DNA of 58,746 nt, the filler included, from Circinaria calcarea (lineage: Eukaryota), in assembly GCA_051942165.1 (NCBI GenBank). It is 8 parts of 8 records of this genome, joined end to end, with 100 filler letters (N's around TTAATTAATTAA, not from the genome) between each part and the next. Parts side by side here need not be neighbours in the genome. Positions count along the whole stretch, not along the records: positions 1 to 7,271 come from JAVECS010001371.1; 7 more parts are not named here. One strand, written 5' to 3'. Made by a program: the position numbers and the translations under genes. Positions 1-52,045 of this stretch are shown in pieces. Numbering within the stretch: position 1 is the stretch's first letter; each line of letters starts with the position of its first letter. The notes under the pieces are model-generated. The model did no database searches. It was not told where the DNA came from and saw nothing but the letters and a program-made list of their open reading frames with translations.

Positions 1-91
1 ATCCCGGATCATTACTACGAAGTTTTTCATAAAAACTCATCCTTATAAATAATTAAGGCAGGCGTTAAAGGAAAAAAAGATTTCGCCGTTG

Positions 92-550
92 TGTTAAGAC
101 TCAGGTTTACGAGGGGGTCACGCTAAATAAGAAGGGGAATGGTATGAAGGAAGCACGGGCTAAGGGAGTGGCCGTGCCAAGCCTTGCCAAGACCACGTGA
201 CTTCTCAAAAGGGCAATACCGCTCAGGCGTTGGAACTTCCCAAAAGGGCAATACCGCTCAGGCGTTGGAACTTCCCAAAAGGGCAATACCGCTCAAGCAG
301 CGACAGAGCCGGATAACTGCCTAGTTGGGACTAGGGGGGAATTTCCTAGGTCTATATAACCCACGCTCTTTCCATAGTTGGGAGATCCTTCTTGATCTTC
401 CGTAGTCAACTTCGTTTAGGAATACGCTCTTTGAAAAACTCTATACGATATTCCCTGCGATCTTTAAGTCTCCCGTGGCATTGACATACTTGTCCCCCTC
501 TAAGACCCAACTCACCTTGGGCCGATCCTTTAGTGGAGCGGTTCATAACA
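92..550 (+). repeat. 5' LTR
   Basis: Starts TGTTAAGAC, ends TTCATAACA; roughly 95% identical to 6541-7001 by manual alignment; TATATAA at 353-359. Confidence 0.95.
201..298 (+). repeat. 35-bp tandem repeat (~2.8 copies) in LTR U3
   Basis: CTTCYCAAAAGGGCAATACCGCTCAGGCGTTGGAA at 201-235 and 236-270, partial copy from 271; also present in the 3' LTR. Confidence 0.9.
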
Positions 551-552
551 CT

Positions 553-560
553 TTGACTAC
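553..560 (+). promoter_or_regulatory. Putative self-priming primer-binding site
   Basis: TTGACTAC just inside the 5' LTR end is the reverse complement of GTAGTCAA at 402-409, about 43 nt downstream of the TATA box. No TGG-type tRNA PBS is present. Confidence 0.65.
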
Positions 561-583
561 CCTTACTTGGTCAAGTATCAATC

Positions 584-2548
584 ATGTCAGGAGCTCGTTC
601 AACATCTCCAGCTGCATCCGTGGCAGGATCGATGCACGGTGGAACCCAACGTCGAGAAGAGGAAAAGGACCAAGGACCTAAGGTGGAAACCTATTACGGA
701 GATCGTTCAAAGCTACGCTTTTTCCTAGCGCAGTTGAAGGTGTTCTTCGTTCTCAATCGGCGGAAGTACAACAGTGCCACACCTCAGGTATATTACGCAG
801 CAATGTGTCTAAGGGGGGCCGCGTTCGCGTGGTTCGAGCCCTACCTCAACGACAGACTAGGAGGGGAACCGTGTGATCAAGACACCATGAATATCTTCGA
901 CAGTTTTGAGAACTTCGAGGTGGCCATAAAGCAGGTCTTTGGGGTCGCTGACGAAGCCAGGACTGCTGAAAGAATCATACACCAGTTACGACAAAAGGGG
1001 TCAGCAGCCTCATACTGGTCACAGTTTCAGCAGGTCGCATCAAAACTCAGGTGGGAAGACAAGGTGCTTGAAGCAGTGTTCTATACAGGCCTAAAGGACG
1101 AGGTTAAGGAAAAGATGATCAATAACCGACCCACGGAATACCACAGTCTGGTGGAAACCGCAATCAGGATCGATAACGAAATCTACGAACTCAGAAGAGA
1201 AAAAGGAGGACGTGGAGGAGCGTATCGAGGGTACGGAGGATACACCTCGGCAACCAAAGGCAACTTCGGAGATCCAATGGACCTGGATGTCATGCAACAT
1301 GGTCGGGCCTCACGCCCACGGAGACCAAACCGCTTTCAGAAAGGTGCCAAGAACAACGACGAACGAGAGAAACGCAGAAGAGAGAACCTGTGCTATAATT
1401 GTGGAAAATCCGGACATCAGGCCAGAGAGTGCGAGACACGGGCCCAGGGACTGCATATGATGAATGATGATACAGCCGGTATAGTAGCAAAAAAGGCCGA
1501 CACTACTATAGAGAACCTGAAAGAGCAGGAAATCTCAGCACAGAAGGCACTCGCCGCAGCCCAAGGGCAGCTCGACGCACGCGAGGAGGAGTCAGACTGG
1601 ATACAGGTATACCATGAAGACCGACAAAAAGAACTCGACGAGGTGCGAAAGGAGTACGACGAGGAGCAAAGGCAGCTAGACAGGATACAGAACCTGCTAG
1701 TGCGCAAGGAACCAGCCAAAGAAAAGCAAAAAGAGATACCGCACGAGTGGTTATCATGGACAGCTTGCTACGACGACAGGTGCCTCACGCACATTTCCGA
1801 CAAAACGGGATCAGGGTGGTTTCCTCGGAAGCCAAGAACCCAACGACGCAGCAACAAAAACAAGGACCAGGAATCCTTATCCATGATGAACGCACCAATA
1901 GAAGTCTTGGATAACCAGCACGAGGTGGAAATAAGCGATACAGACGAAGAAATTGGAGATCCAGTACGAACCGAAGTACTAGAAATCGAGAAAACTCATA
2001 TCCTACTATCCACGCCGTTGTGGAAGGAAGTTCTATGCGAAACACACTGCGATTTGGGGACTCAACACCATCATGTGGTGTACGATAAGAAGACAGAACC
2101 CAAGTGCTACGCTCGAGAACTCAGGTTGGACTTGTGCCAGGAACAGGACTGCCCGGAGGGACCTGACCTGCACGTCCACCAAGGAAAGACGAATCAGACA
2201 ACAAGCAAAGTACATGTCCCGGAGCAGGTACGACAACGTATCTGGGGAGAAGGAGTCTCGGATTCGGAGAGAGATATGAAAGACGATGGGAAGACACTGG
2301 TGGTTCTACAACTAATCGACAATAGAGTTGATGACGAATTCATCAGCGCAATCTTTGAATGTACGGACATTCATTGCGACATATATTATCAAGAACATCA
2401 GCACGTGTACAACGTCGACCCAGCACAACCAAGGATACCCCTGAAGAGAGGAGCGTTTCAGACCTTGGTGATAGGAAGAAACGTCTGTGATCAGCAACAG
2501 TGTGAGTGGAGAGATGAGCTCCATGTCCACTTTCCAAAAAACGACTAG
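584..2548 (+). CDS. gag: Gag polyprotein (capsid, CCHC zinc knuckle, long Cys/His-rich C-terminal extension)
   Basis: 654-aa ORF; retrotransposon capsid-like region (LRGAAFAWFEP...LRQKGSAASY...FYTGLKDEVK); knuckle CYNCGKSGHQAREC. Confidence 0.93.
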   Translation: MSGARSTSPAASVAGSMHGGTQRREEEKDQGPKVETYYGDRSKLRFFLAQLKVFFVLNRRKYNSATPQVYYAAMCLRGAAFAWFEPYLNDRLGGEPCDQDTMNIFDSFENFEVAIKQVFGVADEARTAERIIHQLRQKGSAASYWSQFQQVASKLRWEDKVLEAVFYTGLKDEVKEKMINNRPTEYHSLVETAIRIDNEIYELRREKGGRGGAYRGYGGYTSATKGNFGDPMDLDVMQHGRASRPRRPNRFQKGAKNNDEREKRRRENLCYNCGKSGHQARECETRAQGLHMMNDDTAGIVAKKADTTIENLKEQEISAQKALAAAQGQLDAREEESDWIQVYHEDRQKELDEVRKEYDEEQRQLDRIQNLLVRKEPAKEKQKEIPHEWLSWTACYDDRCLTHISDKTGSGWFPRKPRTQRRSNKNKDQESLSMMNAPIEVLDNQHEVEISDTDEEIGDPVRTEVLEIEKTHILLSTPLWKEVLCETHCDLGTQHHHVVYDKKTEPKCYARELRLDLCQEQDCPEGPDLHVHQGKTNQTTSKVHVPEQVRQRIWGEGVSDSERDMKDDGKTLVVLQLIDNRVDDEFISAIFECTDIHCDIYYQEHQHVYNVDPAQPRIPLKRGAFQTLVIGRNVCDQQQCEWRDELHVHFPKND

Positions 2549-2590
2549 AGGATAGCCTCGCGAGGCAAGGCTATTCCTCCACGAAGCCTC
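2536..2590 (+). promoter_or_regulatory. -1 programmed ribosomal frameshift signal (slippery heptamer plus stem/pseudoknot)
   Basis: A AAA AAC in the gag frame at 2536-2542; pol is in the -1 frame and open from there. Stem GAGGATAGCCT (2548-2558) / AGGCTATTCCTC (2568-2579); loop GAGGC can pair with GCCTC at 2586-2590. Confidence 0.8.
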
Positions 2591-5500
2591 AGAACATCGA
2601 TATGACCTTTCTACCAACGACTTCGCAGCATATGGTCCTCACGGCCGAGCTGGAAGGAGAAAAGGTACAGGTTATGATCGATTGTGGAGCCAATCGGAGT
2701 TATGTATCAACTCGATTAGGGCAGAAACTGGCGCATAAAAAAGAAGACAAACGACAACCCTATCCACTCACGATGGCCGACGGGACCCCGGTCGACTTCG
2801 ATGGAGGATGGATCAGGAAAGAATTACGACAAGTTCGGTTGCGGATCGAGGATCACACGGAAGTGATTTCGCTCGATATAACGAATCTCAAGTACGATGC
2901 AGTACTCGGCATGGCATGGTTAACGACACATAATCCAATGGTGGATTGGAAGGCAAGAGTTCTCAAATTCCCATGCAGTCACGGGACGAAAACGGGAGAC
3001 AGATCACCTCCAAAGGTACCCTTCGCAAAGGCAATATGGGTGCGACCGCAGGGACGAGTGCTAGCTGGTACTAGTGAAGAGCTCCCCTCGGAATATCAAG
3101 ATTTTGAGGAACTATTCCAGGAGAGGGTCGGAGAGGCCGCTCTGCCTGAGCATAAGCCTTGGGACCATGAAATCCCAATAGAAGAAGGAAAGACTCCAAC
3201 GCATTATGGAGGTCTTATACCACTCTCCAAGAAAGAAGAAGACTTTCTCAAGAATTACATTGAGACACATCTTGAAAAGAAGTTCATACGGCAGTCGACT
3301 TCGCCTATATCTCACGGTGTGTTGTTTGCACCGAAGAAGGACGGAAGTCTACGACCTTGTATCGACTATCGCAAGCTCAATGCGCTTACCAAGAAGAACC
3401 GATATCCACTTCCTAGGATCGACGAACTACAAGATCGATTGTTAGGAGCCAAATGGTTCACGGCTATCGATATTAGGGACGCTTACTATCGAATCCGAAT
3501 GAAAGAAGGAGAGGAGTGGAAAACAGCATTCCGAACCCGCTGGGGTTTATACGAGTACCAGGTTATGCCTTTTGGCTTAACGAATGCACCAGCCTCCTTC
3601 CAAGCACTAATTAACAATACGCTACAAGAATATCTGGACGACTTCGCCTCAGGGTACCTGGACGATATCCTGATATTCTCGAAGACCTATAAGGAGCATG
3701 TGCAACATGTTCGAAAGGTGCTTCAGAAGCTGAAAGAAAGAGATCTTCCAGTAAAACTCAGCAAGTGCGAGTTTCACAAACACAGTATACGCTTCCTGGG
3801 CTATATTGTGTCGGATCAAGGACTATCGCCGGATCCAGAAAAAGTCAGGGCAATCGAGGAATGGCCAGAACCAACGACGGTGAAAGAAGTGCAGGCGCTA
3901 TTAGGAATATTGAACTACTATCGAAGGTTCATTGGAAACTTCTCCCATATAGCTGCCCCACTTACCGCGTTAACAAAGAAAGAAGTTAGGTTCAACTTCG
4001 GGGAGGATTGCAGGAAAGCCTTCAAGGAGCTGAAGCGCCGTCTGACGACAGCGCCGATCCATGCGAACTTCGACCCGGAAAAGGAGGCAGTTCTCGAAAC
4101 CGATGCATCGGACTATGCGATCGGAGCCTGCTTAACGCAGAAAGGGGACGATGGAAGAATGAGACCCATCGCTTATTACTCCAGGAAGATGACAGAGCCA
4201 GAGTTAAACTACGATATACACGACAAGGAATTACTAGCTGTTGTGGAAGCATTCAAGACGTGGAGAGTTTACCTTGAAGGCCTAGCAAAGCCGGTACAAG
4301 TGTACACGGATCACAAGAACCTGCTCTACTGGACGACAACGAAAGACCTCAATAGAAGGCAAGTCAGATGGGCTGAGACGCTAGCATCTTATGACTTTCG
4401 GATAAACCATGTCCGAGGAACTGAAAACGGAAGGGCGGACGCGCTGAGTAGAAGAGCAGATTACGCGGAGGGAACGAAACCGACTCCGGCATCAATACTC
4501 AAGAGAAACGGAGACCAGCTCACATACAAAACACCGATAGTGGCCATACAAGCACAGATGGATATTGAGCTATCCGAAGAACAAAGAAAATCTGTTATCA
4601 AGGAACGACACGACTTGAAGAGCGCAGGCCATCCAGGCATCAGCAAAACGATAGAACTGGTAACACGAGACTTTACGTGGCCAGGAATAAGACAAGATGT
4701 AACGAAGTACATCGAGGAGTGCGACACTTGCGCAAAAGCAAAACACTCAAGACATCGACCATATGGAAAATTGCAATCACCAGCAATGCCCGGAGAGGCA
4801 TGGTCATCGATAGCATTGGACTTCATCACAAAATTGCCAAAATCGGAAGAACCTCTCACAGGTATTAAGTACGATAGCATTTTGGTGATCGTCGACAGAT
4901 TGACGAAGTATGCGCACTTGGTGCCATATCTGGAAGCGTCCAACGCGGAAGACCTGGCATACACATTCACGAAGATAATCATAGCCCAACATGGGATGCC
5001 AGAAGAGATAATATCGGATCGAGACAAACTGTTTACGTCGCAGTTTTGGCAATCGTTGACAGATCAGCTTGGAACGAAACACAAACTATCAACTGCATAT
5101 CATCCGCAGACAGACGGACAGACGGAACGAACGAACCAGACAATCGAACAGTACCTCAGATGCTACCTCAATTATCAGCAAGACAATTGGGTTGAGCTCT
5201 TACCAATGGCACAGTTCGCGTTCAACAATAGCACATCAGTTACAGGAGTGTCGCCATTTTATGCCAATTACGGGAAACATCCGAACATATCGAGGGATCC
5301 AAGAGGGATCAAACCCATCGCTGAAAGAGCTCGAGTGTCAGTGGACAAACTCCAAGAATTACACGAAATGCTACAAGAAGAGTTAGAGTGGATAGCAGAA
5401 AGATCAGCGGTGCAGGCAAATAAGAAAAGATCTGCGGGACCAGATCTGAAAGAGGGGGGGATGGTCTACCTACTCCGAAAAAACATCAAGACAAAACGAC

Positions 5501-5952
5501 CAAGCGACAAATTGGATCATACGAAATTAGGGCCATTCAAGATAAAGAAGAAACTCGGACCAGTCACGGTCGAGTTAGAGATGCCCAAAGGAATGAGGAT
5601 CCACCCAGTATTTCACATATCATTACTGGAACCAGCAAAAGCGAATGCATCACCAGGACCAATCGAGATAGACCGAGAGACGCAAGAACCATTTTATGAA
5701 ATAGAACAGATACTCGGCTATCAAATCAAGAACGACAAACCCCATTACTTGATTCACTGGAAAGGATATCAGCATTCGGAGGATACGTGGGAACCAGAGG
5801 AACATCTTACCCCGACTGCGGTAAGGATATACCATCAGCAGAACCAAGTACCACGTCCCAGTCAATCGACTCCATCACCGGGAGTTCACCAGTCCAGACG
5901 AGATCGGGCTCGGCCAACACGACTTCCTGCTCGTTATCGAGAGGATTCATAA
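2542..5952 (+). CDS. pol: Pol polyprotein (aspartic protease, RT, RNase H, integrase, chromodomain), expressed by frameshift
   Basis: IDCGA protease motif; RT MPFGLTNAP/YLDD; RNase H TDASDYAIG...ELLAVV...TDHKNL; integrase H-H-C-C and DFIT/SDRD/TER; chromodomain YEIEQIL...YLIHWKGY...DTWEPEEHL. No stops. Confidence 0.97.
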   Translation, partial: RLEDSLARQGYSSTKPQNIDMTFLPTTSQHMVLTAELEGEKVQVMIDCGANRSYVSTRLGQKLAHKKEDKRQPYPLTMADGTPVDFDGGWIRKELRQVRLRIEDHTEVISLDITNLKYDAVLGMAWLTTHNPMVDWKARVLKFPCSHGTKTGDRSPPKVPFAKAIWVRPQGRVLAGTSEELPSEYQDFEELFQERVGEAALPEHKPWDHEIPIEEGKTPTHYGGLIPLSKKEEDFLKNYIETHLEKKFIRQSTSPISHGVLFAPKKDGSLRPCIDYRKLNALTKKNRYPLPRIDELQDRLLGAKWFTAIDIRDAYYRIRMKEGEEWKTAFRTRWGLYEYQVMPFGLTNAPASFQALINNTLQEYLDDFASGYLDDILIFSKTYKEHVQHVRKVLQKLKERDLPVKLSKCEFHKHSIRFLGYIVSDQGLSPDPEKVRAIEEWPEPTTVKEVQALLGILNYYRRFIGNFSHIAAPLTALTKKEVRFNFGEDCRKAFKELKRRLTTAPIHANFDPEKEAVLETDASDYAIGACLTQKGDDGRMRPIAYYSRKMTEPELNYDIHDKELLAVVEAFKTWRVYLEGLAKPVQVYTDHKNLLYWTTTKDLNRRQVRWAETLASYDFRINHVRGTENGRADALSRRADYAEGTKPTPASILKRNGDQLTYKTPIVAIQAQMDIELSEEQRKSVIKERHDLKSAGHPGISKTIELVTRDFTWPGIRQDVTKYIEECDTCAKAKHSRHRPYGKLQSPAMPGEAWSSIALDFITKLPKSEEPLTGIKYDSILVIVDRLTKYAHLVPYLEASNAEDLAYTFTKIIIAQHGMPEEIISDRDKLFTSQFWQSLTDQLGTKHKLSTAYHPQTDGQTERTNQTIEQYLRCYLNYQQDNWVELLPMAQFAFNNSTSVTGVSPFYANYGKHPNISRDPRGIKPIAERARVSVDKLQELHEMLQEELEWIAERSAVQANKKRSAGPDLKEGGMVYLLRKNIKTKRPSDKLDHTKLGPFKIKKKLGPVTVELEMPKGMRIHPVFHISLLEPAKANASPGPIEIDRETQEPFYEIEQILGYQIKNDKPHYLIHWKGYQHSEDTWEPEEHLTPTAVRIYHQQNQVPRPSQSTPSPGVHQSRRDRARPTRLPARYREDS

Positions 5953-6445
5953 CACCTAGGGCCAGCATCTCTCGTTGCAACATGCGTCTGGATATTTCTT
6001 TTAACCTGGCAATCCTTTCAGCCAGAGCAGCTTCTTCAAGCTCAGCAGCAGCAGTGCGTTCTTCGGCCTCGGCGGTGCGAAGGGCGGCTTCCTGCATTTC
6101 CTTACGAGCCGTTGCTTGTAAACTTCGAAGGCGAGAGGTCTCGCGATGACGCTCTTGGGCCTGTTTCTTTAACAGACGTTTCTGTTCGCCAACTTTCCGG
6201 AATTCTTCGAGAGAGAAGGTTCCATCACAATCGCGCTGACTGCGCAGACATTCCGCACATTTTATCGGTTCAGACCGGTCGTAATAACAAGTCAGGCCAT
6301 GTCTGGCACATTGGGAACATGCGACCATCGCTTCAGCTTTGGACTCCGAAATTGCACAGGCGAGATCAGCCCGACGAACCGTGGTGTTCCGCTTAGGCTG
6401 AGGAATCTTGAAGGTGGGAGGATAGAGGAGGCTAGAGCGAGGCAT
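5807..6445 (-). CDS. Antisense ORF3 of the retrotransposon: Zn(II)2Cys6-like cluster plus coiled coil (212 aa)
   Basis: First ATG at 6445. CSQC-x6-C-x9-CAEC-x6-C at 6227-6319, then an E/R/A/L-rich helical stretch. Lies between pol and the 3' LTR and overlaps the pol 3' end by 146 nt. Confidence 0.8.
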   Translation of the reverse strand: MPRSSLLYPPTFKIPQPKRNTTVRRADLACAISESKAEAMVACSQCARHGLTCYYDRSEPIKCAECLRSQRDCDGTFSLEEFRKVGEQKRLLKKQAQERHRETSRLRSLQATARKEMQEAALRTAEAEERTAAAELEEAALAERIARLKEISRRMLQREMLALGVMNPLDNEQEVVLAEPDLVWTGELPVMESIDWDVVLGSADGISLPQSG

Positions 6446-6527
6446 GGTCAGCCATGAAGAAAAAGAAAGAAAAGGAAGACCTCGAGGGGAACTCGCCAGC
6501 TTATGTATGCGCGGACGCACACAGGCT

Positions 6528-6540
6528 AGGAGGGGGATAA
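6528..6540 (+). promoter_or_regulatory. Polypurine tract
   Basis: AGGAGGGGGATAA immediately before the 3' LTR TG. Confidence 0.85.
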
Positions 6541-7001
6541 TGTTAAGACCCAGGTCTACGAGGGGGTCACGCTAGACAAGAAGGGGAATGGTATGAAGGA
6601 AGCACGGGCTAAGGGAGTGGCCGTGCCAAGCCTTGCCAAGACCACGTGACTTCTCAAAAGGGCAATACCGCTCAAGCGTTGGAACTTCCCAAAAAGGTAA
6701 TACCGCTCAAGCGTTGAAACTTCTCAAAAAGGCAATACCGCTCAAGCAGCAACAGAGCAGGATAACTTCCTAGTTGGGACTAGAGGGGAATTTCCTAGGC
6801 CTATATAACCCACGCTCTTTCCATAGTTGGGAGATCTCTCTTGATCTTCCGTAGTCAACTTCGTTTAGGAATACGCTCATTGAAAAACTCTACACGATAT
6901 TCCCTGCGATCTTCTTAAGTCTCCCGCGACATTGACATATTTGTCCCCCCTCAAGACCCAATTCACCTTGGGCCGATCCTTTAGTGGAGCGGTTCATAAC
7001 A
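6541..7001 (+). repeat. 3' LTR
   Basis: Direct repeat of 92-550 with TG...CA termini. Confidence 0.95.
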
Positions 7002-7271
7002 CGATACAGTAACGACAAACCGAGAAAAACAATTCGCCATATACTGTTATCAATTTCAAAAGAAAGATACGCCTGCATTTGACCCACTTCAACTGCCGGC
7101 AATTGTGTCCTTCGTATACACTACCGATCGAAAACGCCATACTGTAGCCGGTCGGGCCGTCACACGTATGCATGCTTCCATTCGCAAAGACGTCAAGTCT
7201 CACAGAAGACAGTCTATGAAGATGTACAAGTACGCCGTGCTATCCCAGCGTAAAGTCCCAAAGATATATAT

Positions 7272-7371
7272 NNNNNNNNNNNNNNNNNNNNNNNNNNNNN
7301 NNNNNNNNNNNNNNNTTAATTAATTAANNNNNNNNNNNNNNNNNNNNNNNNNNNNNNNNNNNNNNNNNNNN
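7272..7371. other. Artificial contig linker
   Basis: N run - TTAATTAATTAA - N run, 100 bp; stops in all six frames. Confidence 0.98.
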
Positions 7372-7789
7372 GTGATGGGGGAGGGGATTGAGCGGGGTCG
7401 AGGGATAGAGTTGATAGGTCGGATGGAAGGTTTCGGTTTGTTGTGGAGTCCCCCATTGTAACGGCGCACAACGACGGGATGCTCTAGATGTGACGGATGA
7501 AACAACTTCGAATTTTTGCATTTGTTTCGACATGTCAGTGCCCACATGCCGGAGCTAGCACGGACCTTTACCATATGCGGGAAACCTTATTTCGCCAATC
7601 TGCACGTCATGAGAAATCGGAGCAACAATGTCCGGGGTGTTCTTCATTTAATTCCTCACTTTTCTGCCAATTTGCTCCCATTGTCGTTTTGCCTATCAGA
7701 CTTAGAAATTTTTTTAAAAACAATTGTTGCCTATCGCCTTTCATTACCTTTCATTCCGCTCTATTGATTGTTCACTTTACCCTCAAAGG

Positions 7790-8605
7790 ATGAGAGCCTC
7801 TTCCCAGCTTCTCTTCCTGCGACCCTCCGCTCTTTTCGAAAACCCTATAGTTATTAGACCGTGTATACATACCTCTCAAACTCCTCAACGGCGACAACCG
7901 CCTCTCTCGCGCTCCTTCGTCACCAATCCTCTCTCACCCACTCTCCAAACCCTCCACGCAGCCCGCACGCTCCCTTACCCCGCTTCATCTCTCTATACCC
8001 TCATCGCCGACATTGCCTCCTACCCATCCTTCCTCCCTTATTGTACCTCCTCGACTATAACCGCATGGTCGAACGCCTCCTTCTCCGGCAGAAAATACCC
8101 CGCAGAAGCCGAACTCCGCGTCGGCTGGTCCGGCTACGATGAAGCCTTCAAGAGCAAAGTCTTCTGCGTACCCGAGACGGTAGTCGAAGCGGTCGCCGGC
8201 CAAGCGCGAACCACGATCCCGGACTCGGATCTCCACCATTACAGAAAGGGCGCCCGGGAGGAGACGGTCCCAGGGAATGAGCTGTTCGAGAGCCTGCTGA
8301 CGCGCTGGACGTTGCGGGAATTCCCGTTCAAGCCCCTTCCGCCGGATGGCAAGATCCCACAGGTGGGGAATGCGAGTCTGCCGAGCAGGGCGCGCACGGA
8401 GGTGAATCTGACCATCGAGGTCAAGTTTGCGAGCGCGGTGTATGCGGCGCTCAGTCAGGCTGCCGCGCCGAAAGTGGCGGGGGTGTTGATCGAAGCGTTT
8501 GAGAAGAGGGTGAAGGAGGTGCTGGGAGAAGGGGAGGTAGGCCCGGGAGAAAGGATGGGGGCCGAAGAGCATAGCGCGTTAGAGGGAAGCATCAGGCAGG
8601 ATTGA
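7790..8605 (+). CDS. COQ10: Coenzyme Q-binding protein COQ10-like (START/cyclase fold)
   Basis: R/S/L-rich presequence, then RTLPYPASSLYTLIADIASYPSFLPYC...AELRVGW...LFESLLTRW...IEAFEKR; single exon. Confidence 0.85.
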   Translation: MRASSQLLFLRPSALFENPIVIRPCIHTSQTPQRRQPPLSRSFVTNPLSPTLQTLHAARTLPYPASSLYTLIADIASYPSFLPYCTSSTITAWSNASFSGRKYPAEAELRVGWSGYDEAFKSKVFCVPETVVEAVAGQARTTIPDSDLHHYRKGAREETVPGNELFESLLTRWTLREFPFKPLPPDGKIPQVGNASLPSRARTEVNLTIEVKFASAVYAALSQAAAPKVAGVLIEAFEKRVKEVLGEGEVGPGERMGAEEHSALEGSIRQD

Positions 8606-14640: not shown

Positions 14641-14740
14641 NNNNNNNNNNNNNNNNNNNNNNNNNNNNNNNNNNNNNNNNNNNNTTAATTAATTAANNNN
14701 NNNNNNNNNNNNNNNNNNNNNNNNNNNNNNNNNNNNNNNN
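14641..14740. other. Artificial contig linker
   Basis: N run - TTAATTAATTAA - N run. Confidence 0.98.
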
Positions 14741-22006: not shown

Positions 22007-22106
22007 NNNNNNNNNNNNNNNNNNNNNNNNNNNNNNNNNNNNNNNNNNNNTTAATTAATTAANNNNNNNNNNNNNNNNNNNNNNNNNNNNNNNNNNNNNN
22101 NNNNNN
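22007..22106. other. Artificial contig linker
   Basis: N run - TTAATTAATTAA - N run. Confidence 0.98.
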
Positions 22107-29366: not shown

Positions 29367-29466
29367 NNNNNNNNNNNNNNNNNNNNNNNNNNNNNNNNNN
29401 NNNNNNNNNNTTAATTAATTAANNNNNNNNNNNNNNNNNNNNNNNNNNNNNNNNNNNNNNNNNNNN
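29367..29466. other. Artificial contig linker
   Basis: N run - TTAATTAATTAA - N run. Confidence 0.98.
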
Positions 29467-36719: not shown

Positions 36720-36819
36720 NNNNNNNNNNNNNNNNNNNNNNNNNNNNNNNNNNNNNNNNNNNNTTAATTAATTAANNNNNNNNNNNNNNNNNNNNNNNNN
36801 NNNNNNNNNNNNNNNNNNN
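36720..36819. other. Artificial contig linker
   Basis: N run - TTAATTAATTAA - N run. Confidence 0.98.
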
Positions 36820-43476: not shown

Positions 43477-44071
43477 GGGGAGGGAGGTGTTTTGTGGGGT
43501 ACGCTTAGGGAATGAACGAATATGGGGATATGAAGATAAGACGAGTCATTGTGAATGGAAACTGTATTATGACGACGACTGATGACCAATTTACGAACAT
43601 TTCAGACAATGGGGTGTATGAGAGAAAGCCAAGTCGGGAAAGGCATCCATACATAGCATACGCCTACGTACCTCGATAGCGAGAAAAAATCGGAAAGAGA
43701 ATGACCACCATTTTTTCTTTTTTTTCCGTACAAGAACTACCTTACCTGGGGCAAAAATCGAAGGCGCGTTTGTGCAGGAGAGGAGAAGTTGGAACTAAAG
43801 GTAGGGAGCGAAAATCAATCAATTAATTAATTAATAAATGAAAAAAAAAAAAAAAAAAATAAGAGAAAAAAATAAGAGAAAAAAAAATTTCAACTTCCAC
43901 GGTGAATTGGTAGAAAATTGCTGGCGTTTTTTCGACTTTGACTTTTGCTTTGCCATTCTATACCGTTTGCCCCAATTCCATACACCCATACACCCATATC
44001 CCCCACATTTCCCCTCTTCCTTTTTCCTTTGCTTTTTCCAAATGCCCAAATCCTCCTCCTCCCTTTAACCA

Positions 44072-44171
44072 NNNNNNNNNNNNNNNNNNNNNNNNNNNNN
44101 NNNNNNNNNNNNNNNTTAATTAATTAANNNNNNNNNNNNNNNNNNNNNNNNNNNNNNNNNNNNNNNNNNNN
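44072..44171. other. Artificial contig linker
   Basis: N run - TTAATTAATTAA - N run. Confidence 0.98.
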
Positions 44172-44855
44172 ACGCCATTAAGCATATTATCTGAAGTTTT
44201 CTTAACCCTATTAGAATCAATATCTGACGACAAGGGCTGAAAAAACTTTAGCAAAATGGTAAAAATAATGATAAAACTTTATAAACCGTGTAGGATATCT
44301 CTATTTAATTTAGATTCGTTTTAAACTTCTTGGTGAATAGCAGGTATATACCTGCTAAGATGTATTATTATAATAGACCTCTTTTTAGTTTGAATATGAT
44401 CTTACTGATCTATCTGTGAAGATTGGTAACTTTTGTGGATTAAAAGATCTGCTTATTATTTAAAGAAAAGGTTGAAAGGTTCTTTCTCTTCCCGCGAAGA
44501 AGTTTTCTTAACGAAAAAGGTTTCGAGAGATGACGCACTACTAGAGAACCAACCTTAATGGAGAATATACTACGGCGAATCGCCTACTATATTTTATATA
44601 TTTAAGAGGCATTTTATGCCTTTTCACCTCATTTTTGGTTAACTTTACCTTTTTAGATTAAACTTATTTAATCTAATCAAATCTAAAATATTCACAATTT
44701 AGATTTATTAAATGGATATTTAGTACTATTAATATATTTTATTTTTTGCATTGGTTTGTTTTGTTTGTTTTGTTTTTAGACTGTAAACACTATACTAGTT
44801 TAAACTATTTATAAGAGACTAGATAAACCTCTTTTTATTGGCATTATTAATTCTT

Positions 44856-45548
44856 TTATCTTTTACGATTAATATGATATAAAAATCAAACTACTTTACG
44901 TGTTAGACGGAATAAGTTAGGTAAATCTTTCTCTAGATCCTTTTTAATCTCAGATCAGATGCGAATATTAGTACCACATGAGTTTTTAAATTCTTGGTAA
45001 GAACCAAATTCGTCTGAATTATGTTGCTTTCAGATAATTCAGAAAAATCTGCGTTTAGCCTTAGATTTAAAATCTTTTAAAGCAGGATTGTCACTTGTAA
45101 TAGTATGATCCACTCTTTCAGACTGACTAGTTTGAAAGGGAGGATGATTAGAATGTGAACGTCTAGGTCTTTCATTAGACCTATCAGCAGTTAAACGAGA
45201 TGGATCTGGAAGTTCCCAGATATCATGTAAAGATACCTCTAACTTAGGGTAAAACACATCAAATATATCTATAATTAAGGGGCTATTTCATTTTAAACTA
45301 AAAGACCAATAAGAAAAAAGTCCTATAACTGAGATAAGTCCTAGTTAAACGACGGTATTTAACGATATATAAACGAACGGCGAAAGAAAAAAAAAGAAAG
45401 AAAGAACCAAAGTAATAAACAGGATAAGGAAACTCCGAAGAGTGAATAAATTCCGAAGATTAGAAAACCTAATGTGATTGTTTGAATCGTTATTACTATT
45501 GCTATTGTTATTGTTATTGTTATTGTTATTAATGTTATTATTTGTCAT
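44856..45548 (-). pseudogene. Frameshifted mitochondrial ORF (poly-Asn, TM segment, C-terminal KRRFFWIIW...SYQEFK...IWSEIKKDL domain)
   Basis: With TGA=Trp the 45039-45257 ORF extends to TAA at 44856. The N-terminal part (45345-45548) is separated from it by stops or frameshifts. Confidence 0.5.
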
Positions 45549-45710
45549 TATATATTTTATGTTAATTCTATATTTACTGTAAACACAATACTAGTTTAGA
45601 AGTTAAAAGACACGACCCAGTCGAGAAGCTTTTTTTTTATAGAAGTAAAATGAGTGTAGATTTGAAAACAAGTCTAGTGAGTTATATAAAATATTGTCTA
45701 GTTCATTATG

Positions 45711-45783
45711 GGAGGATACCCTGACTTGAACAGGGAACTTACTGTGCCACATACAGTTGTTCTACCTATTGAACTATATCCAC
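45711..45783 (-). tRNA. trnH: mt tRNA-His (GUG)
   Basis: Cloverleaf; anticodon arm ACTGT-ATGTGGC-ACAGT; T-loop GTTCAAGTC. Confidence 0.9.
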
Positions 45784-45889
45784 CTTTATTATCTCAATTA
45801 GTCTCGAGTATTTATTAGACTTTTGTCTAATAAAAATAAAGCCCTTTAGTATTAAGATAAAATATTTTACTCTCTCTCCAAGAGTCATG

Positions 45890-45962
45890 TTATGTTGGAG
45901 TGATTCGAACACCCATAGATAAATACCAAAAATTTAGGACTTACCGATTAGTCAACAACATA
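45890..45962 (-). tRNA. trnQ: mt tRNA-Gln (UUG)
   Basis: Acceptor TATGTTG/CAACATA; anticodon arm TAAAT-TTTTGGT-ATTTA; GTTCGAATC. Confidence 0.92.
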
Positions 45963-46130
45963 TTTATTTATTATTTTTAGCATCTATTAGATTTCTTCTA
46001 AAAAAAATAAGCATTGAAGAAATTACATATTAATAATTTATTATCCCACGATAATTATCATAACATTTATAACACGTTTGAAACAAACAAAAAAAAAATG
46101 TTATATATAAGATGATTAATACTTAATACA

Positions 46131-46814
46131 TTATTTAAATTTAAAATAATATTTATTATTTCATATCGTACCTTTGTTTATATATTTACTAACGTTACTA
46201 GGCGACAATCCCACAAAGACTCCAGTTTCTTTTATAGTTTTAGATGATTTTACTAAATTTAGATTTTTATCGTAAACTAAAACAGGAGCACCTCTTGATC
46301 TTAATCTTAATTTATTTTTAGTTTCGTCACTGACTAAACATTTTATATTTGTTTTGTATAGTCTTTTATAGGATTTACCCCTGTGCATGTCACCAAATTT
46401 TAATTTAATGATGTCTGAGTGTTTATAGCCTGCCATAGATCCCGCCTTTTTATTAATATTTAAAGAAGGAGAATATTTATCCAGATACCATTGTTCTTTT
46501 TCCATTAAAATATTTTTTTCTATTTTAGCATTGCTTATGCTTTTTAATATTTCTAGTATGGTATATTCAATATTATTCCAGCCATATTTATTTATCATGT
46601 TGTAAAATTTGCTGTTGTTTCCTTTGTATATAGAGTATCTATATCTATGCTGTCTAAAGCGCTGCGAAAGATTTTGAGCTGAACCTATGTAAATTTTAGT
46701 CTTATCAGAAATTAACCTATATGCATATATACCTGCATCATTACTTAATATACTTTTATAATTGTCGGGTATGAAGCCCTGTTTGTTTAATTTAATCCAT
46801 TTTAAGTTTTCCAT
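46131..46814 (-). CDS. Free-standing GIY-YIG homing endonuclease with NUMOD-like C-terminal motifs (227 aa, code 4)
   Basis: AGIYAY...KIYIGSAQNLSQRFRQH...EKEQWYL...LNI; GYKHS NUMOD3-like motif. TGA=Trp extends it to ...WNNKYYFKFK*. ATG lies just after the trnL 3' end. Confidence 0.9.
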
Positions 46815-46815
46815 G

Positions 46816-46897
46816 TATAGATAACAAGACTCGAACTTGTACGGCTGAAGCCATTCCATCCTAAGTGGAAATTGTCTACCAATTCCAACATATCTAC
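46816..46897 (-). tRNA. trnL: mt tRNA-Leu (UAG)
   Basis: Anticodon arm TTCCA-CTTAGGA-TGGAA; long variable arm GGCTTCAGCC; GTTCGAGTC. Confidence 0.92.
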
Positions 46898-46926
46898 TTT
46901 TGGAAAAAAAAAATGTAGCACTAATT

Positions 46927-47799
46927 CTAAGGTAAATTTCTTAATTGATCACGTATAGGTTTAGTGTTAGCCATGTCTCAGAGACGGGCTGCGTCGTTAG
47001 CCATACCTGCAAAAACTTTATCATGAAACGTACGATTATGAGCAAAAGATCAATCACGCAATCAATCTTCCATATACTCAGAAAAATATGTTTTACTAGG
47101 AGTTAAATTATTAGAACGTAAAAATAGAAGGTGATCAGCAATCATTCTACCAACAACCTTATTAGATTGCCCGTCAGTACGAAAACCGAGTCAAAGAGGA
47201 TGTTTAAATCCTGCTACTGTTCCCATGTGTACTGGTCTATGCACATAGCTTGCATCAGCGGGAGGTAAAGGATTAGTATTAGGATACAGATTAGGAACAC
47301 TTCCAGGTAATGGGGCGGCAGGAGCAGCGGCAGGAGCAGGTGCATTATTTGTACCAGACCCGCTAGCTGTTGCAGATGTATTACTTCCACCTTGACCCAC
47401 ACCACCAGAAGTATCATCCATAGTCATAACTATTTGACTATAAAGTAAATTACTTATAATATTGAGATGTGGCCTCGGTAATTTGAAAGTAGTTGAAAAT
47501 CAGCCAAGTAATAAGGTAACACTTGTTACAATATCTAAACTGTAATGCACGACTAAGATATGTAAGATTGCTGTTATAATTGCAGGGGTAATTCCTACAC
47601 ATACAAGAATTATAGTGTTTGGTATCCTGTTTCCTTTAATAAAAGTAACAGATATAACGTGTAACACTCCTACAACGCCACATACTATAGGAAAATAATT
47701 AAGCAGACCTAAGTGAGATAATAATTGATACATAGGCAATTTTAAACTTAGATAGAATAAAATTGAGAATAGTAAAGGATATCGTTTGAAATTTAACAT
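46927..47799 (-). CDS. Unknown mitochondrial ORF 'C' (290 aa, code 4): TM helices, G/A/P linker, conserved C-terminal domain
   Basis: ORFs 47500-47799 and 47191-47427 are in the same frame and fuse through TGA=Trp, continuing to TAG at 46927; ends LWDMANTKPIRDQLRNLP. Confidence 0.8.
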
Positions 47800-48125
47800 T
47801 TTTAAAAATTATATTATAAGGGGGTAATTATTTAAAAATAACAGAGAAAAAAATACCACTAAATGATACATAAGTAAGCCAAGCAATAATCACTTAATCA
47901 TAAAAAAAACCGAAAGTGTATAAAAGAAATGGTAACCTAGCGCACAGAAATGAAGTAAGTAACCAGAAAAAAAATCCCAAAATGGCAAAACCATATTATC
48001 TACTTCATAGAAAGGGTGAAATGTATTATCTAACAGGCCCCTATCCCCCCCCCAAAGGGGCAATGTTATAAATAATATAAGAAAATAAAAATGTAATGCG
48101 ATAAATAATATAAGGTATAAACCTA

Positions 48126-48199
48126 TGCTCGAGATAAGATTTGAACTTATAGCCTAAACATCTTCAGAGTTCCGCTCTACCAGATTGAGCTTCTCGAGC
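48126..48199 (-). tRNA. trnF: mt tRNA-Phe (GAA)
   Basis: Acceptor GCTCGAG/CTCGAGC; anticodon loop CTGAAGA; GTTCAAATC. Confidence 0.92.
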
Positions 48200-48230
48200 T
48201 TTTTGCATTAAATCATATATCTCAATACAA

Positions 48231-48302
48231 TGGAGATACCAGGGCTCGATCCTGGGATAACGATATGCAAAATCGTAGTTTTACCAATTAAACTATATCC
48301 CC
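48231..48302 (-). tRNA. trnA: mt tRNA-Ala (UGC)
   Basis: Acceptor GGGGATA/TATCTCC; anticodon arm ACGAT-TTTGCAT-ATCGT. Confidence 0.92.
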
Positions 48303-48305
48303 TTT

Positions 48306-48341
48306 ACTGTACTTAGCAGGTATTTACCTGCTAAGTACAGT
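48306..48341. repeat. Mitochondrial palindromic element
   Basis: 17-bp perfect arms ACTGTACTTAGCAGGTA/TACCTGCTAAGTACAGT; the core recurs as TAGCAGGTATATACCTGCTA at 44338-44357. Confidence 0.85.
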
Positions 48342-48529
48342 TATTTTTAAAATACATACAAATATATATATAATATATAACTAGATTAAAAAAAAAAATA
48401 GTTTTATATGGGAGACTCTCGATTCCTTATTTAAATTATTATATTTTTAGATGAGTCTTAACCTTACTTATATATTAACGTAAATTAAAAAAAAAAATCC
48501 ATCCATCCATCCATCCATCCATCCATCCC

Positions 48530-49339
48530 TTATTGATGCGAATACTATCCAAGCCTTTCTTCAAGGATTAGCCCTGAGGCACGCAAATATCCTTTGAATT
48601 CATTATGGGGTCATATAAGGCATATAATGCGAAAGCTTTCAAATTAGGATTGTTTTCAAACATACAAGGATTAAAAGTACCTTGCCCACTAGATTTTAAT
48701 TTAGCTAACACATTAGCAAAATGAGCCGCGAAAGGTTGGTTTGTATTCAACCCATTAAACCGTTAATAACCCCTGCTAAGTTGATTTGCATCATCGCTAA
48801 TTGTGACATCTACTACTTTATACTTTGGACCAATATTAGTAAAGCTACCGCTTTGGCCTACTTGTAGAGTGACTGGTGTATCTACAATAGGTTGAAGTTT
48901 AGATTGACCATAACCCGGTTGAGCACCACCAGCTTGACCACCAACAGTATGAGCACCACCGACTTGACCTACACCACTAATAGTTAAACTAACCATGTGT
49001 GATATAGATGTCTTGCCATCAACTAATTTAAATCCAGATGTATTATGCATATATGAATATTATGCAGTTATTTCTAGTAATGCTTGTATCATTTTAAATG
49101 CTACTGAATATACTGAACCAATTAAGTAAAAAAAAATTACTTAATATATTTAAATCTAATTATAGTGTAATAAAAAGTAAACTTCGGACACATCATACTA
49201 CAAATATAGTAGTAATTAATATTAATGTTCCAAGAAGAGTAAATTTATTAAGAAATTTACTCTTAAACATTGAAAAGAAAGTCTTTAAGAGTGGCAGACT
49301 TACAAAGTCTGCTGGAGGTTTAGAGGGACTCTTTAAACA
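48530..49339 (-). pseudogene. Degraded paralog 'B' of ORFs A/C, headed by a cox1 3'-tail copy
   Basis: CLKSPSKPPADFVSLPL, then a hydrophobic segment with TAA stops, a G/Q linker, and DDANQLSRGY*RFNGLNTNQPFAAHFANVL. Confidence 0.7.
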
Positions 49340-49341
49340 TC

Positions 49342-50715
49342 TTAAGGAGCATTACGTAGGGAATCTCTTAATGCCTTAGTATTACTAAGATTGTATCATT
49401 TCGGATTTCCGTATTCACCGGAAGGATTCTCAATTAACTTGTATAAATCTCGCTCCTTGGTATATATATGATCCAACACAAAATGTTCATGATTAGGTAA
49501 AAAAAGAAATTTTCCCATTTGTCTGCCACCTAGCTTATAATGGTGATCTAGAGCAGAAGCGATATTACCAGCAAGTGGTTGATTAGTACCATTCGGGTTA
49601 TAACCAGCTTGCGCTTGATTTAAAGGATCATTTATCTGTAAAGGTCCGGTTCTTAAACCAGCTCGTCCTTGATTAGGATCACCTCAGGTGTTACCGGCTA
49701 TATTACCAACATTTGCTGGATGAGGATTATTGGAAGTCCCGGCTAGATTACCAGCATTTGCTGGATTAGCATTATTTGGATAACCGGCTATATTCCCAGC
49801 ATTTGCTGGATTATGATTGTTCATACTACTTGTATATGGTAACATAAAATTACTGCTCTTTTTGGGAGCTAGTTGTGTTGTTTCTAGAGAGCTAGAATCA
49901 TTAATAGTAATTTTGTTATAATCTTTTAATCTATTATAAACAGCTTCTATAAAAACTTTAATATTCGAGAAAAACTTCTTATCTATTTTTCTAAAATGGC
50001 TAGGTATATTAGATATAATATCCCAAAAGAGTTTAATGTCATCTATAAAACTTAGATCTAAAAAAGGTATAATTAAACAATTAAGGATACTTTTTATATA
50101 AGTAACACTTAAGATAGAAAGAGCACTACTTATACCAAATATAACATCATTCTCGATATATATTATGTCAAAATGTGTTTTGAAATATATTCTAATACCA
50201 ACACTAACAAGAAAAGCTAAAACCATACCAATTACAGACTTTCTAGTGCAAATTTTATTTAAAGCCGTTTTAAATACTGTATAGACTCTTTTTATATCTA
50301 TTACAGGAAAAATTTTACTTTGTAGAGGCAAGCTTACAAAGGCATGAGGGTTAGGTGGACTATTTAAACATCACTCTAATGAATTATACGCTCTATTTAA
50401 GATAGTTTGTAGAGAATCACTATAATATTGTGGTGTTAATCTAGGATATCCCCCAAGAGCTCTCCCTTCCGCTAATTGTACATATATTATGTATAAGAAT
50501 GGTGAAATAAACAAAACTATCTTAGCCATTGTTTTTCTTTCTGCTACGGTTACAAAAGCTACAATTAATAGAACAGGGACAGTAACTAACAAGACTTCTA
50601 GGATGGAAATATAAATTGGTAAAACGTATTTTGAAAACACGTATATTATTATTATAAGTAATATAAAAGCAAAAGTTACTTGATTTATAAAATAAAAAGG
50701 TACTAGTTGCGGCAT
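49342..50715 (-). CDS. Chimeric mitochondrial ORF 'A' (457 aa, code 4): atp8 N-term + nad1 N-term + cox1 C-term + unknown TM/repeat/NQP domain
   Basis: MPQLVPFYFINQ...SKYVLP (atp8); ISILEVLLV.VP.LL.VAFVTVAERKTMA (nad1); FLYIIYVQL...[28 protein letters not shown] (cox1 tail). Open through TGA codons to TAA at 49342. Confidence 0.82.
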
Positions 50716-51409
50716 GTTTAGTTTAAAGATTCGAAATGTTAATGCGATCTTTTATGCATTTATATCTTATATAAGATAAGAGTTTTAGAGGAGAAAAAAA
50801 GAGGGGAAGCTTATAAACTTTTCATCATTTATATAATTTGTTTCTAGAAATATATTCGAGAGATAAATAGGATTATATAGTTATATAATCCTGTTTTTAA
50901 GCTAGTTTACATATTATTGTTTAAATAACTGTCTTGTGATTCGAAGAGATAATTTTATATCTTATTCTGCAATTCAACATTAACTTCGTTCGTATCTAAC
51001 ATTACAGATAAGTCCCAAAACACTCAGCTAAAAATTGTGAAGGGTTCTTAAGAACTTTAGTATGTACAACTACTAATCAGAAATCATAGCACCTTTAATA
51101 AGTACAATAAATGTTAAAAACTGCGTACTCTTCATTGGATAAAAATATAAATACAAATACCAAAATAAAGGAAAGAACTCGGGAGTATATCCTCCCTCGA
51201 ATGTACCGTATTAAAATGTGAAATTCTTCCTATACCCCGTGCAATTTTCTTTAAGTTAAAAAACAAAGAAGAAGATAACCTTAGCTTTAAACAAAAACGT
51301 CTTTTGTTCTTCTCTACTAAACCTTAATTTTTATTAAGGTGGCCATCATTTTCGCTATATAAGCGGATTAGTCCAAAACTAGTTATCAACTGGTTGGCAG
51401 TCAGCCAGC

Positions 51410-51509
51410 NNNNNNNNNNNNNNNNNNNNNNNNNNNNNNNNNNNNNNNNNNNNTTAATTAATTAANNNNNNNNNNNNNNNNNNNNNNNNNNNNNNNNNNN
51501 NNNNNNNNN
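51410..51509. other. Artificial contig linker
   Basis: N run - TTAATTAATTAA - N run. Confidence 0.98.
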
Positions 51510-52045
51510 CCCCATTTCTCCCCCATTTCTTCCCCATCTCCCTCCACCTCTCTTTTTTATAAGGCCTCCCAACAGTGCAGTCAGCACAAACATACACTCG
51601 CATTACCCGGTGCATGCGCGCACTCCCAAGCTTGCATTACCAGTAGAAGTTTAAGGTGGTTGTAATGGTGCTTTAAGGGTCGAAAGTACTGCACCACCAG
51701 TGCTGGAAAGCATTAAGGCTTACCGAGTTACCCCTCACACAACATGTAAACTTTCTCACTTTAATGGTAATTTAGTTTAATTACATACACAGCAATACAT
51801 GCAAATGCCATCACAAATATTAATCAATAAGCATCAGCAGCTTGAGCAGTTCATCCATTGCAACCATGTTTCTATCTTCCGAGTTTCGACAATTAGGCTA
51901 TCAAGAAACTTCGGTCCTGAGCAGCTAAATACGGAGTCTATAAGAGCATATAGCTATTTATGTTTTACCTCCAACCTTAGTATTCTCGTCGTACCGCTGT
52001 CTTACAACGTGGGATTTTGAAAGGCTTGGTCTCGGTCGCGGTGCA

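Follow-up and report, generated by a model that had tools for sequence, protein, structure and literature searches.

How does a retrotransposon flanked by long terminal repeats (LTRs) come to carry an intact open reading frame (ORF) on the strand opposite to its pol gene, and what might such a frame encode? The question is raised by a 58,746-nt stretch of Circinaria calcarea DNA (assembly GCA_051942165.1; hereafter the window), which is made up of eight pieces of about 7.3 kb. The first piece, positions 1-7271, is a contig that contains an intact Ty3/Gypsy element. Both gag and pol are intact in this element, and it encloses a minus-strand ORF of 212 amino acids (P0001), which a preliminary description of the DNA had placed between pol and the 3′ LTR and had read as the gene of a Gal4-type regulator. 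Sequence comparison identifies this ORF as a true third gene, carried by a chromovirus lineage of Ascomycota Ty3/Gypsy elements, and we refer to it as the accessory gene.

The frame starts with an ATG at 6445..6443, 95 nt away from the 3′ LTR, and ends with a TAA stop codon at 5809..5807, in a tail-to-tail arrangement with pol. Re-reading of the sequence confirmed that the ORF is intact, that its six cysteines have exactly the spacing described earlier, and that the protein carries the tail ELPVMESIDWDVVL. Its antisense position inside the element also stands, but the placement between pol and the 3′ LTR has to be amended, as the final 146 nt of the frame (5807-5952) also belong, on the opposite strand, to the 3′ end of pol.

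A word-indexed search returned 18 homologues of 137-240 amino acids with identities of 40-57%, and an exhaustive search among representative sequences yielded 114 homologues with E ≤ 1e-3, 37 of them at ≤ 1e-10 and 10 at ≤ 1e-30. When the word-indexed database was queried with a profile of A2, only five further proteins (P0136-P0140) came to light. Alignment A1 comprises 19 family proteins, all but one of which (P0019) cover the cysteine region; the six cysteines are kept in 16 of these 18, and the other two show Cys-to-Tyr changes. Across the family, the six-cysteine pattern is found in 75 of 130 proteins, the remainder being mostly fragments or copies mutated from Cys to Tyr. Further conservation in A1 is seen in the segments DGTFSLEEFRKVGEQKK and MLQREMLALGV, at P180 and in a SIDW motif. 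The named hosts of family members are Exophiala mesophila, E. oligosperma, Knufia peltigerae and Peziza echinospora. Neighbours in the protein atlas are Ascomycota clusters of 122, 62 and 90 members, annotated as ‘hypothetical protein’ and without a Pfam family, and the UniRef entry of P0016 bears the automatic name ‘Zn(2)-C6 fungal-type domain-containing protein’.

Two relatives from Knufia peltigerae and Exophiala oligosperma (P0059/P0132) are longer, with 512-523 amino acids that comprise the cluster, the coil and a long low-complexity extension. They lie on contigs of 0.3 and 2.3 Mb, their clusters are 90% identical across the two genera, and they have no match in Pfam; they could represent a domesticated host copy or a gene-model read-through. 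Among proteins of 372-2000 amino acids, longer relatives were not detected at E ≤ 0.01, which constitutes weak evidence.

When metagenome contigs were scanned with A1, 11 loci containing 12 copies were identified, and these were compared by tblastn with the gag, pol and accessory proteins of the window. The homologue lies on the strand opposite to a Ty3/Gypsy pol, just past the pol 3′ end, at 10 of the 11 loci (11 of the 12 copies), and it overlaps pol in three copies, namely L001 and both copies of L002. The remaining locus, L004, is 2 kb long and thus too short to judge the position. The pol proteins of the related loci are 37-67% identical to that of the window, and the accessory protein of L002a is only 27% identical to the query yet occupies the same place in a different element. 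Between the window and L001, the accessory protein is 49% identical, compared to 37% for gag and 67% for pol; its conservation falls between the levels of these two and is therefore similar to that of the element’s other proteins. The ORF is intact in four of the 12 locus copies (L001, L002a, L002b and L004; 175-195 amino acids), while the other eight are broken by stop codons and Cys-to-Tyr changes and appear mutated throughout.

Among the intact copies of the core family, the proportion of synonymous differences (pS) is 0.73-0.88 and hence saturated, and that of non-synonymous differences (pN) is 0.22-0.45. The ratio of non-synonymous to synonymous substitution rates (dN/dS) is about 0.09 for L001 and L002b. 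Constraint is distributed unevenly along the protein, with uncorrected pN/pS values of 0.17-0.43 for the cluster and coil (residues 40-164), 0.40-0.91 for the N-terminus (residues 1-39) and 0.53-0.87 for the tail (residue 165 to the end), the part that overlaps pol in the window copy. The N-terminus of the window protein is merely 21-23% identical to those of the other intact copies. These comparisons demonstrate an accessory gene that is real, conserved, syntenic and under purifying selection. Of the findings that the preliminary description had named as refuting its reading, those that concern sequence did not occur: the ORF recurs in sister elements, and its six cysteines are conserved among homologues, apart from the Cys-to-Tyr copies and fragments noted above.

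One of the loci, L002, contains two different elements of the lineage arranged head to tail within positions 1-8172, gag of one being separated from the accessory gene of the following one by only about 465 nt. Positions 1-158 and 6491-6648 of this locus carry a 158-nt repeat with 99% identity, which is an LTR, shared or nested, or else arose in assembly.

As to the function of the gene, the reading that we place first, and to which we give about an even chance, is that it encodes a dimeric, zinc-dependent nucleic-acid-binding regulator that acts on the element’s own control regions; DNA binding as such, the target and the direction of regulation are what we infer. The product would be a small protein of nuclear type, with a weakly conserved basic N-terminus, a head resembling a binuclear zinc cluster, a heptad-phased coiled coil and an acidic/hydrophobic tail. 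An antisense promoter located in the 3′ LTR or next to it would drive its expression, and it would act on the control regions of the element, for which a GC-rich palindrome in the leader of the gene and the LTR are candidates. By analogy to HBZ of human T-cell leukaemia virus type 1 (HTLV-1), it would thereby adjust how strongly the sense strand, or the accessory gene itself, is transcribed.

The cysteine-containing head (residues 43-73) has the exact spacing C-x2-C-x6-C-x9-C-x2-C-x6-C, which fits the Zn2Cys6 pattern C-x2-C-x6-C-x5-12-C-x2-C-x6-8-C. An AF2 model, calculated with a 56-sequence alignment whose members were picked for having the cysteine pattern, has a mean pLDDT of 82.3 and contains helices at residues 21-34, 44-48, 64-69 and 196-201 in addition to a long helix at 79-162. 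Within the cluster, the two short helices 44-48 and 64-69 (pLDDT 85-93) start at the C-x2-C pairs. A Foldseek search with this model returned solved Zn2Cys6 DNA-binding domains at all of ranks 1-22, the best E-value being 0.16 and nothing reaching E ≤ 0.001. The top hit was Pho7 (E = 0.16, probability 0.96, r.m.s.d. = 2.6 Å over 36 columns). Superposition with VIA-align gave an r.m.s.d. of 1.4 Å over 32 of 33 residues for PDB entry 1cld (Z = 2.4), and Z-scores of 2.1 and 2.5 for Pho7 and Hap1, respectively. At E ≤ 1, the Pfam family Zn_clus (PF00172) is matched by 8 of 19 members (best E = 0.0083) and by 33 of 56 (best E = 0.0021), which makes it the commonest weak Pfam match; the next, a coiled-coil family, is matched by 8 of 56. 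Two arginines between Cys5 and Cys6, R68 and R71, are nearly invariant, and some distant family members do have Arg or Lys between Cys2 and Cys3. The head is therefore best described as Zn2Cys6-like, with a predicted fold, and we do not assign it to Zn_clus.

The cluster is followed by a helix of 84 residues whose ends are conserved (EEFRKVGEQK and MLQREMLALG) and whose centre is variable. The spacing between these two anchors is 57, 64, 71, 78 or 85 residues in 23 of 25 proteins, always 1 modulo 7; the helix thus changes in length by whole heptads, as would be expected of a phased coiled coil. A spacing of 96 was observed in the other two proteins, which are close relatives of each other. A homodimer model of residues 36-170 with zinc reached a score of 0.51, compared to 0.12 for the best of three controls. 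This model was built from the single sequence, leaving the alignment unused, and included zinc, unlike the calibration, in which 21 of 30 proteins solved as one-chain pairs, and none of 23 solved as single chains, attained the 0.51 mark. For eukaryotic proteins the corresponding numbers were 17 of 29 pairs and none of 30 single chains, with just one of seven reaching the mark where an older solved relative was lacking. At least 88% of contacts are common to the runs, and the partner has a pLDDT of 78 or more. Contacting residue numbers sum to about 240 (120 with 120, 92 with 148, 106 with 131), and the modelled dimer is consequently antiparallel. The protein is thus predicted to pair as a coiled-coil homodimer, and the antiparallel pairing would set the conserved N-terminal end of the helix against the conserved C-terminal end of the partner, an arrangement that fits the variable centre. 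The tail of the protein lies over the low-complexity C-terminal tail of pol, and its pLDDT is low apart from helix 196-201. To judge from the AF2 model and the heptad spacing, the preliminary description was right about the layout, in which the cluster is followed by a long coiled coil and an acidic/hydrophobic tail.

Upstream of the accessory ATG, a leader of about 95 nt has been conserved despite saturated synonymous sites; this holds for each of the 12 copies aligned, of which the window provides one. Read on the strand of the gene, it consists of the LTR end with the complement of the polypurine tract, the palindrome, TACATAA, GTRAGT, a pyrimidine-rich tract and ATGGCTRAC, followed by one base, the ATG of the ORF and, within 3-14 nt, YAG. 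In the palindrome, 93% of cells are paired and four of the six pairs change on both sides, a level attained by none of 500 shuffles; it could be a hairpin or a binding site for a dimer. The paired changes occur at CpA/TpG, and we therefore rejected the view that covariation here proves an RNA hairpin. The LTR is the other candidate target. In the U3 region of the 3′ LTR there are three tandem repeats of ~34 nt (about 6651-6750), a CACGTGAC motif and a TATA-like CTATATAAC; the repeats, which are located at 203-300 in the 5′ LTR and 6651-6750 in the 3′ LTR, each carry CCGCTCA(A/G)GCG. The LTRs of the window and L001 have only a CACGTGACTTC motif and the TATA region in common.

Several observations weigh against a DNA-binding regulator, and in particular against its Gal4-type form. 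The Pfam search that the preliminary description called for did not place the ORF in Zn_clus, since the window protein scores 12.9 bits (E = 0.12) where the cut-off is 21 bits, and none of the 56 members reaches the threshold, not even the best match given above. A sequence profile of A1 run against the PDB returned coiled-coil noise only (E ≥ 0.36) and no Zn2Cys6 chain. The fold statistics, at a Foldseek E-value of 0.16 or higher and VIA-align Z-scores of 2.1-2.5, are weak, and AF2 may simply be reproducing a known fold from the cysteine spacing. In Gal4, the DNA-contacting Lys and Arg residues are located between Cys2 and Cys3. The corresponding stretch in the close family is mostly neutral or hydrophobic, with basic residues mostly missing: its consensus is C-S-E-C-V-x4-V-C, with at most one Lys or Arg, and the window copy has ARHGLT. 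There is also no conserved Pro after Cys3 in the close family aligned in A1. The antiparallel model sets the two heads about 84 helical residues apart, and this geometry is not the way in which Gal4 reads a short palindrome. The symmetric changes in the palindrome are explicable, without selection, by repeat-induced point mutation at CpA/TpG. Finally, the tandem repeats in the U3 region of the window have no counterpart in the LTR of L001, so that this comparison brought no common target site in the LTRs to light. Of the Gal4-type assignment, the cysteine spacing and the predicted fold are thus retained, whereas the Zn_clus threshold, the basic residues between Cys2 and Cys3 and the antiparallel dimer model speak otherwise.

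Part of this evidence would be explained if the gene encoded a real element protein that is not a DNA-binding regulator but an adaptor or scaffold with a zinc module at each end of an antiparallel rod, an alternative that we regard as possible, leaning towards unlikely. The cluster would then be a protein- or RNA-binding zinc module, and the protein might take part in steps such as nuclear import, particle assembly, tethering to chromatin or the bridging of cDNA ends; another possibility is that it captures a host factor via its conserved tail and thereby opposes silencing by the host. The tail motifs P180 and SIDW are typical of a docking peptide. A dimer with heads at opposite ends suits such a rod, as does a helix with both ends conserved and a variable centre, but the antiparallel orientation stems from a single-sequence model. 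Likewise, the scarcity of basic residues between Cys2 and Cys3 and the sub-threshold match to Zn_clus favour an adaptor, yet the sole recognisable fold relatives are DNA-binding domains, and R68 and R71 stand nearly invariant in the Cys5-Cys6 stretch. The conserved palindrome within the gene’s own leader is also not what an adaptor would lead one to expect.

The regulator reading can be extended by the remaining signals of the leader. Donor-like, branch-like and YAG signals are present in all 12 copies and, as a hypothesis, may be read as a short fungal intron on the accessory strand. The candidate intron measures about 48-61 nt in copies with a GTRAGT donor and 65 nt in the window; with the donor picked by the script, the range is 48-77 nt. 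The distance from the candidate branch A, in a branch point of the type CTRAC, to the AG is 7-16 nt. The upstream ATGGCT is invariant in five intact copies, and in the window it opens an upstream ORF of seven codons that overlaps the accessory ORF. If spliced, the message would lose both the upstream ATG and the first ATG of the ORF, leaving Met40 as the start; the context of this codon has G at -3 and +4 in all four intact copies. TACATAA and the pyrimidine tract could equally be a core promoter with a start site inside the leader. An N-terminal extension contributed by a leader exon was rejected, as the donor-like site of L004 and L001 is immediately preceded by in-frame stop codons. In its most specific form, which we consider unlikely, the regulator would be a fungal counterpart of HBZ, that is, an antisense factor with an intron spliceable on the antisense strand only, whose dimer switches between sense expression and quiescence. 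The unspliced message would yield the full protein, and the spliced one, deprived of both upstream AUGs, would be translated from the invariant Met40. The conserved leader palindrome or sites in the LTR would serve the dimer as binding sites.

It is improbable that the gene is a passenger, captured once from a host by an ancestral element and either without a role in the element or now serving the host. The 512-523-residue relative on large contigs of Knufia peltigerae and Exophiala oligosperma could be such a host or domesticated copy, because its cluster is 90% identical across the two genera. A useless gene would, however, decay in active elements, whereas position, orientation and leader are kept here across elements whose pol proteins are 37-67% identical and whose synonymous sites are saturated. 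Broken copies (eight of the 12 at the loci) are found only where the whole element is mutated, and a copy away from pol was seen at none of the 11 loci, one of which is too short to judge. That the antisense frame is open by chance and its cysteine pattern a coincidence, as the 146-nt overlap with pol and the weakly constrained tail (pN/pS 0.53-0.87) might suggest, is hardly credible and is refuted, as far as sequence evidence goes, by 114 homologues with conserved cysteines, by a pN far below pS outside the overlap and by indels that come in heptads.

The coordinates of the element and of the accessory gene are compiled in Table 1. The Pfam matches of pol are RVT_1 (3.3e-39), RT_RNaseH (2.6e-39), Integrase_H2C2 (6.5e-20), rve (8.8e-08) and Chromo (2.8e-13), the chromodomain being located at about 5695-5835. 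The two LTRs match at 94% over 300 nt and at 92% over 88 nt, a low identity given that gag, pol and the accessory gene are intact. A clear 5-bp target-site duplication was not found; CGTTG precedes the 5′ LTR and CGATA follows the 3′ LTR. Low LTR identity together with the missing duplication might reflect recombination between copies or a chimeric assembly. The element has no signature of repeat-induced point mutation (TpA/ApT 0.75).

Table 1. Features of the Ty3/Gypsy element and its accessory gene, in window coordinates.
Feature	Position	Strand	Basis or remarks
5′ LTR	92..550	+	TG...CA; direct repeat with 6541-7001
gag, 654 amino acids, intact	584..2548	+	Pfam Retrotrans_gag 4.6e-12, Ty3_capsid 4.7e-08, zf-CCHC 9.9e-06
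pol, 1116 amino acids, intact	2602..5952	+	protease, reverse transcriptase, RNase H, integrase, chromodomain
Accessory gene (P0001), 212 amino acids, intact	5807..6445	-	ORF reading, homologues, synteny, pN/pS
Acidic/hydrophobic tail, residues 165-201	5843..5953	-	conserved P180 and SIDW motif (A1)
Long helix/coiled coil, residues 79-162	5960..6211	-	AF2 helix, pLDDT 92-99
Six-cysteine Zn2Cys6-like cluster, residues 43-73	6227..6319	-	spacing, conservation, fold model
Internal Met40 codon, possible alternative start	6326..6328	-	Met in 18/18 covering members of A1
Candidate intron, 65 nt	6432..6496	-	GC donor (window copy), branch-like GCTGAC, first AG thereafter
Conserved leader between accessory ATG and 3′ LTR	6446..6540	-	alignments A3 (5 copies) and A4 (12 copies)
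Upstream out-of-frame ATG within ATGGCTGAC	6447-6455	-	10 nt before the ATG of the ORF
CT-rich tract	6456-6483	-	in leader
Donor-like GCGAGT	6491-6496	-	GTRAGT in other copies
TACATAA	6501-6507	-	in leader
Palindrome	6505-6522		consensus CTTGCG-TCCR-CGCAAG; GC-rich, 6-bp arms, 4-nt centre
Polypurine tract	6528-6540	+	adjoins 3′ LTR
3′ LTR	6541..7001	+	direct repeat with 92-550

The C-terminal half of gag (about 1800-2548, plus strand) is a long extension past the CCHC knuckle with several Cys/His-rich repeats, for example W-x-A-C-Y-D-D-x-C-x2-H, and has no Pfam match there. The pieces of the window are joined by linkers (44 N, ttaattaattaa, 44 N) at 7272-7371, 14641-14740, 22007-22106, 29367-29466, 36720-36819, 44072-44171 and 51410-51509, and genes past 7271 are therefore not neighbours of the element. 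The region 43500-52000 is AT-rich, with a GC content of 0.31 and a TpA/ApT ratio of 1.07, and looks affected by repeat-induced point mutation; similarity to the proteins of the element was not detectable in it.

Transcription of LTR retrotransposons is commonly assumed to depend on host factors. The zinc-cluster/coiled-coil gene described here is conserved and spread over deep branches of the ascomycete chromoviruses, which would mean that these elements bring with them their own regulator or adaptor, in the manner of complex retroviruses. The intact copies provide reagents, namely the 212-residue protein, the leader of ~95 nt with its palindrome and the LTR, with which it can be tested whether a transposon tunes its own activity or evades fungal genome defence. 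The findings also show that many of the small Zn-cluster proteins annotated as ‘hypothetical’ in fungi are encoded by transposons.

A class of antisense ORFs located between pol and the 3′ LTR has been described under the term aORF-3R (PMC7264820). The accessory ORF has the position typical of this class, as pol ends at 5952, the 3′ LTR starts at 6541 and the ORF is on the opposite strand. Plant examples of antisense ORFs are those of Grande1, RIRE2, Retand, with a TRP28 domain, and PvRetro13; for the TRP28 proteins of Retand, comparison with retroviruses has led to the proposal that they bind DNA and act as regulators (PMC7264820, PMC11963269). The plant ORFs share position and orientation with the accessory gene and are conserved about as well as the other element proteins. 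They differ in that they belong to plant elements, Retand being of a non-chromovirus lineage and its TRP28 domain unrelated, and their descriptions in these reports mention neither a cysteine cluster nor a long coiled coil.

In fungi, the known case is brtn, the antisense gene of Boty (PMC8365987, PMC7264820, PMC4227169, PMC5987419), which the preliminary description had cited, in agreement with PMC8365987 and PMC7264820. In the same literature, a Monilinia transcript matches a truncated Pol together with BRTN, which fits a tail-to-tail layout with pol like that of the accessory gene. A zinc cluster or coiled coil is not among the features given for brtn in those accounts, and the name ‘BRTN’ does not appear among those family matches that carry names.

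Outside the fungi, HBZ of HTLV-1, whose gene lies antisense beside the 3′ LTR, is a dimerising protein of transcription-factor type with spliced and unspliced forms that differ at the N-terminus. The accessory gene resembles it in lying antisense next to the 3′ LTR, and the N-terminal isoforms would match the candidate leader intron, if real. However, HTLV-1 is an animal retrovirus, HBZ has a basic leucine zipper in place of a cysteine cluster, and the two proteins have no sequence relation. With Gal4-type Zn(II)2Cys6 factors (Pho7, Gal4, Leu3, Put3, Hap1, Ppr1, AlcR), the accessory protein shares the six-cysteine spacing and, in the model, the two short helices; in both, moreover, the cluster is directly followed by a coiled coil, the tail is acidic and the occurrence is confined to fungi. 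It differs from them in falling below the Pfam cut-off, in the scarcity of basic residues between Cys2 and Cys3, in the lack of a conserved Pro after Cys3, in the small size of the family proteins (184-240 amino acids), which lack the middle homology region (no match to Fungal_trans), in an 84-residue helix modelled as antiparallel, and in being encoded by a retrotransposon. Full-text searches, which largely leave out subscription journals, found no report of an antisense retrotransposon gene with a zinc cluster or a coiled coil. The accessory gene is a variant of the described class of antisense ORFs between pol and the 3′ LTR, and one of a little-studied kind.

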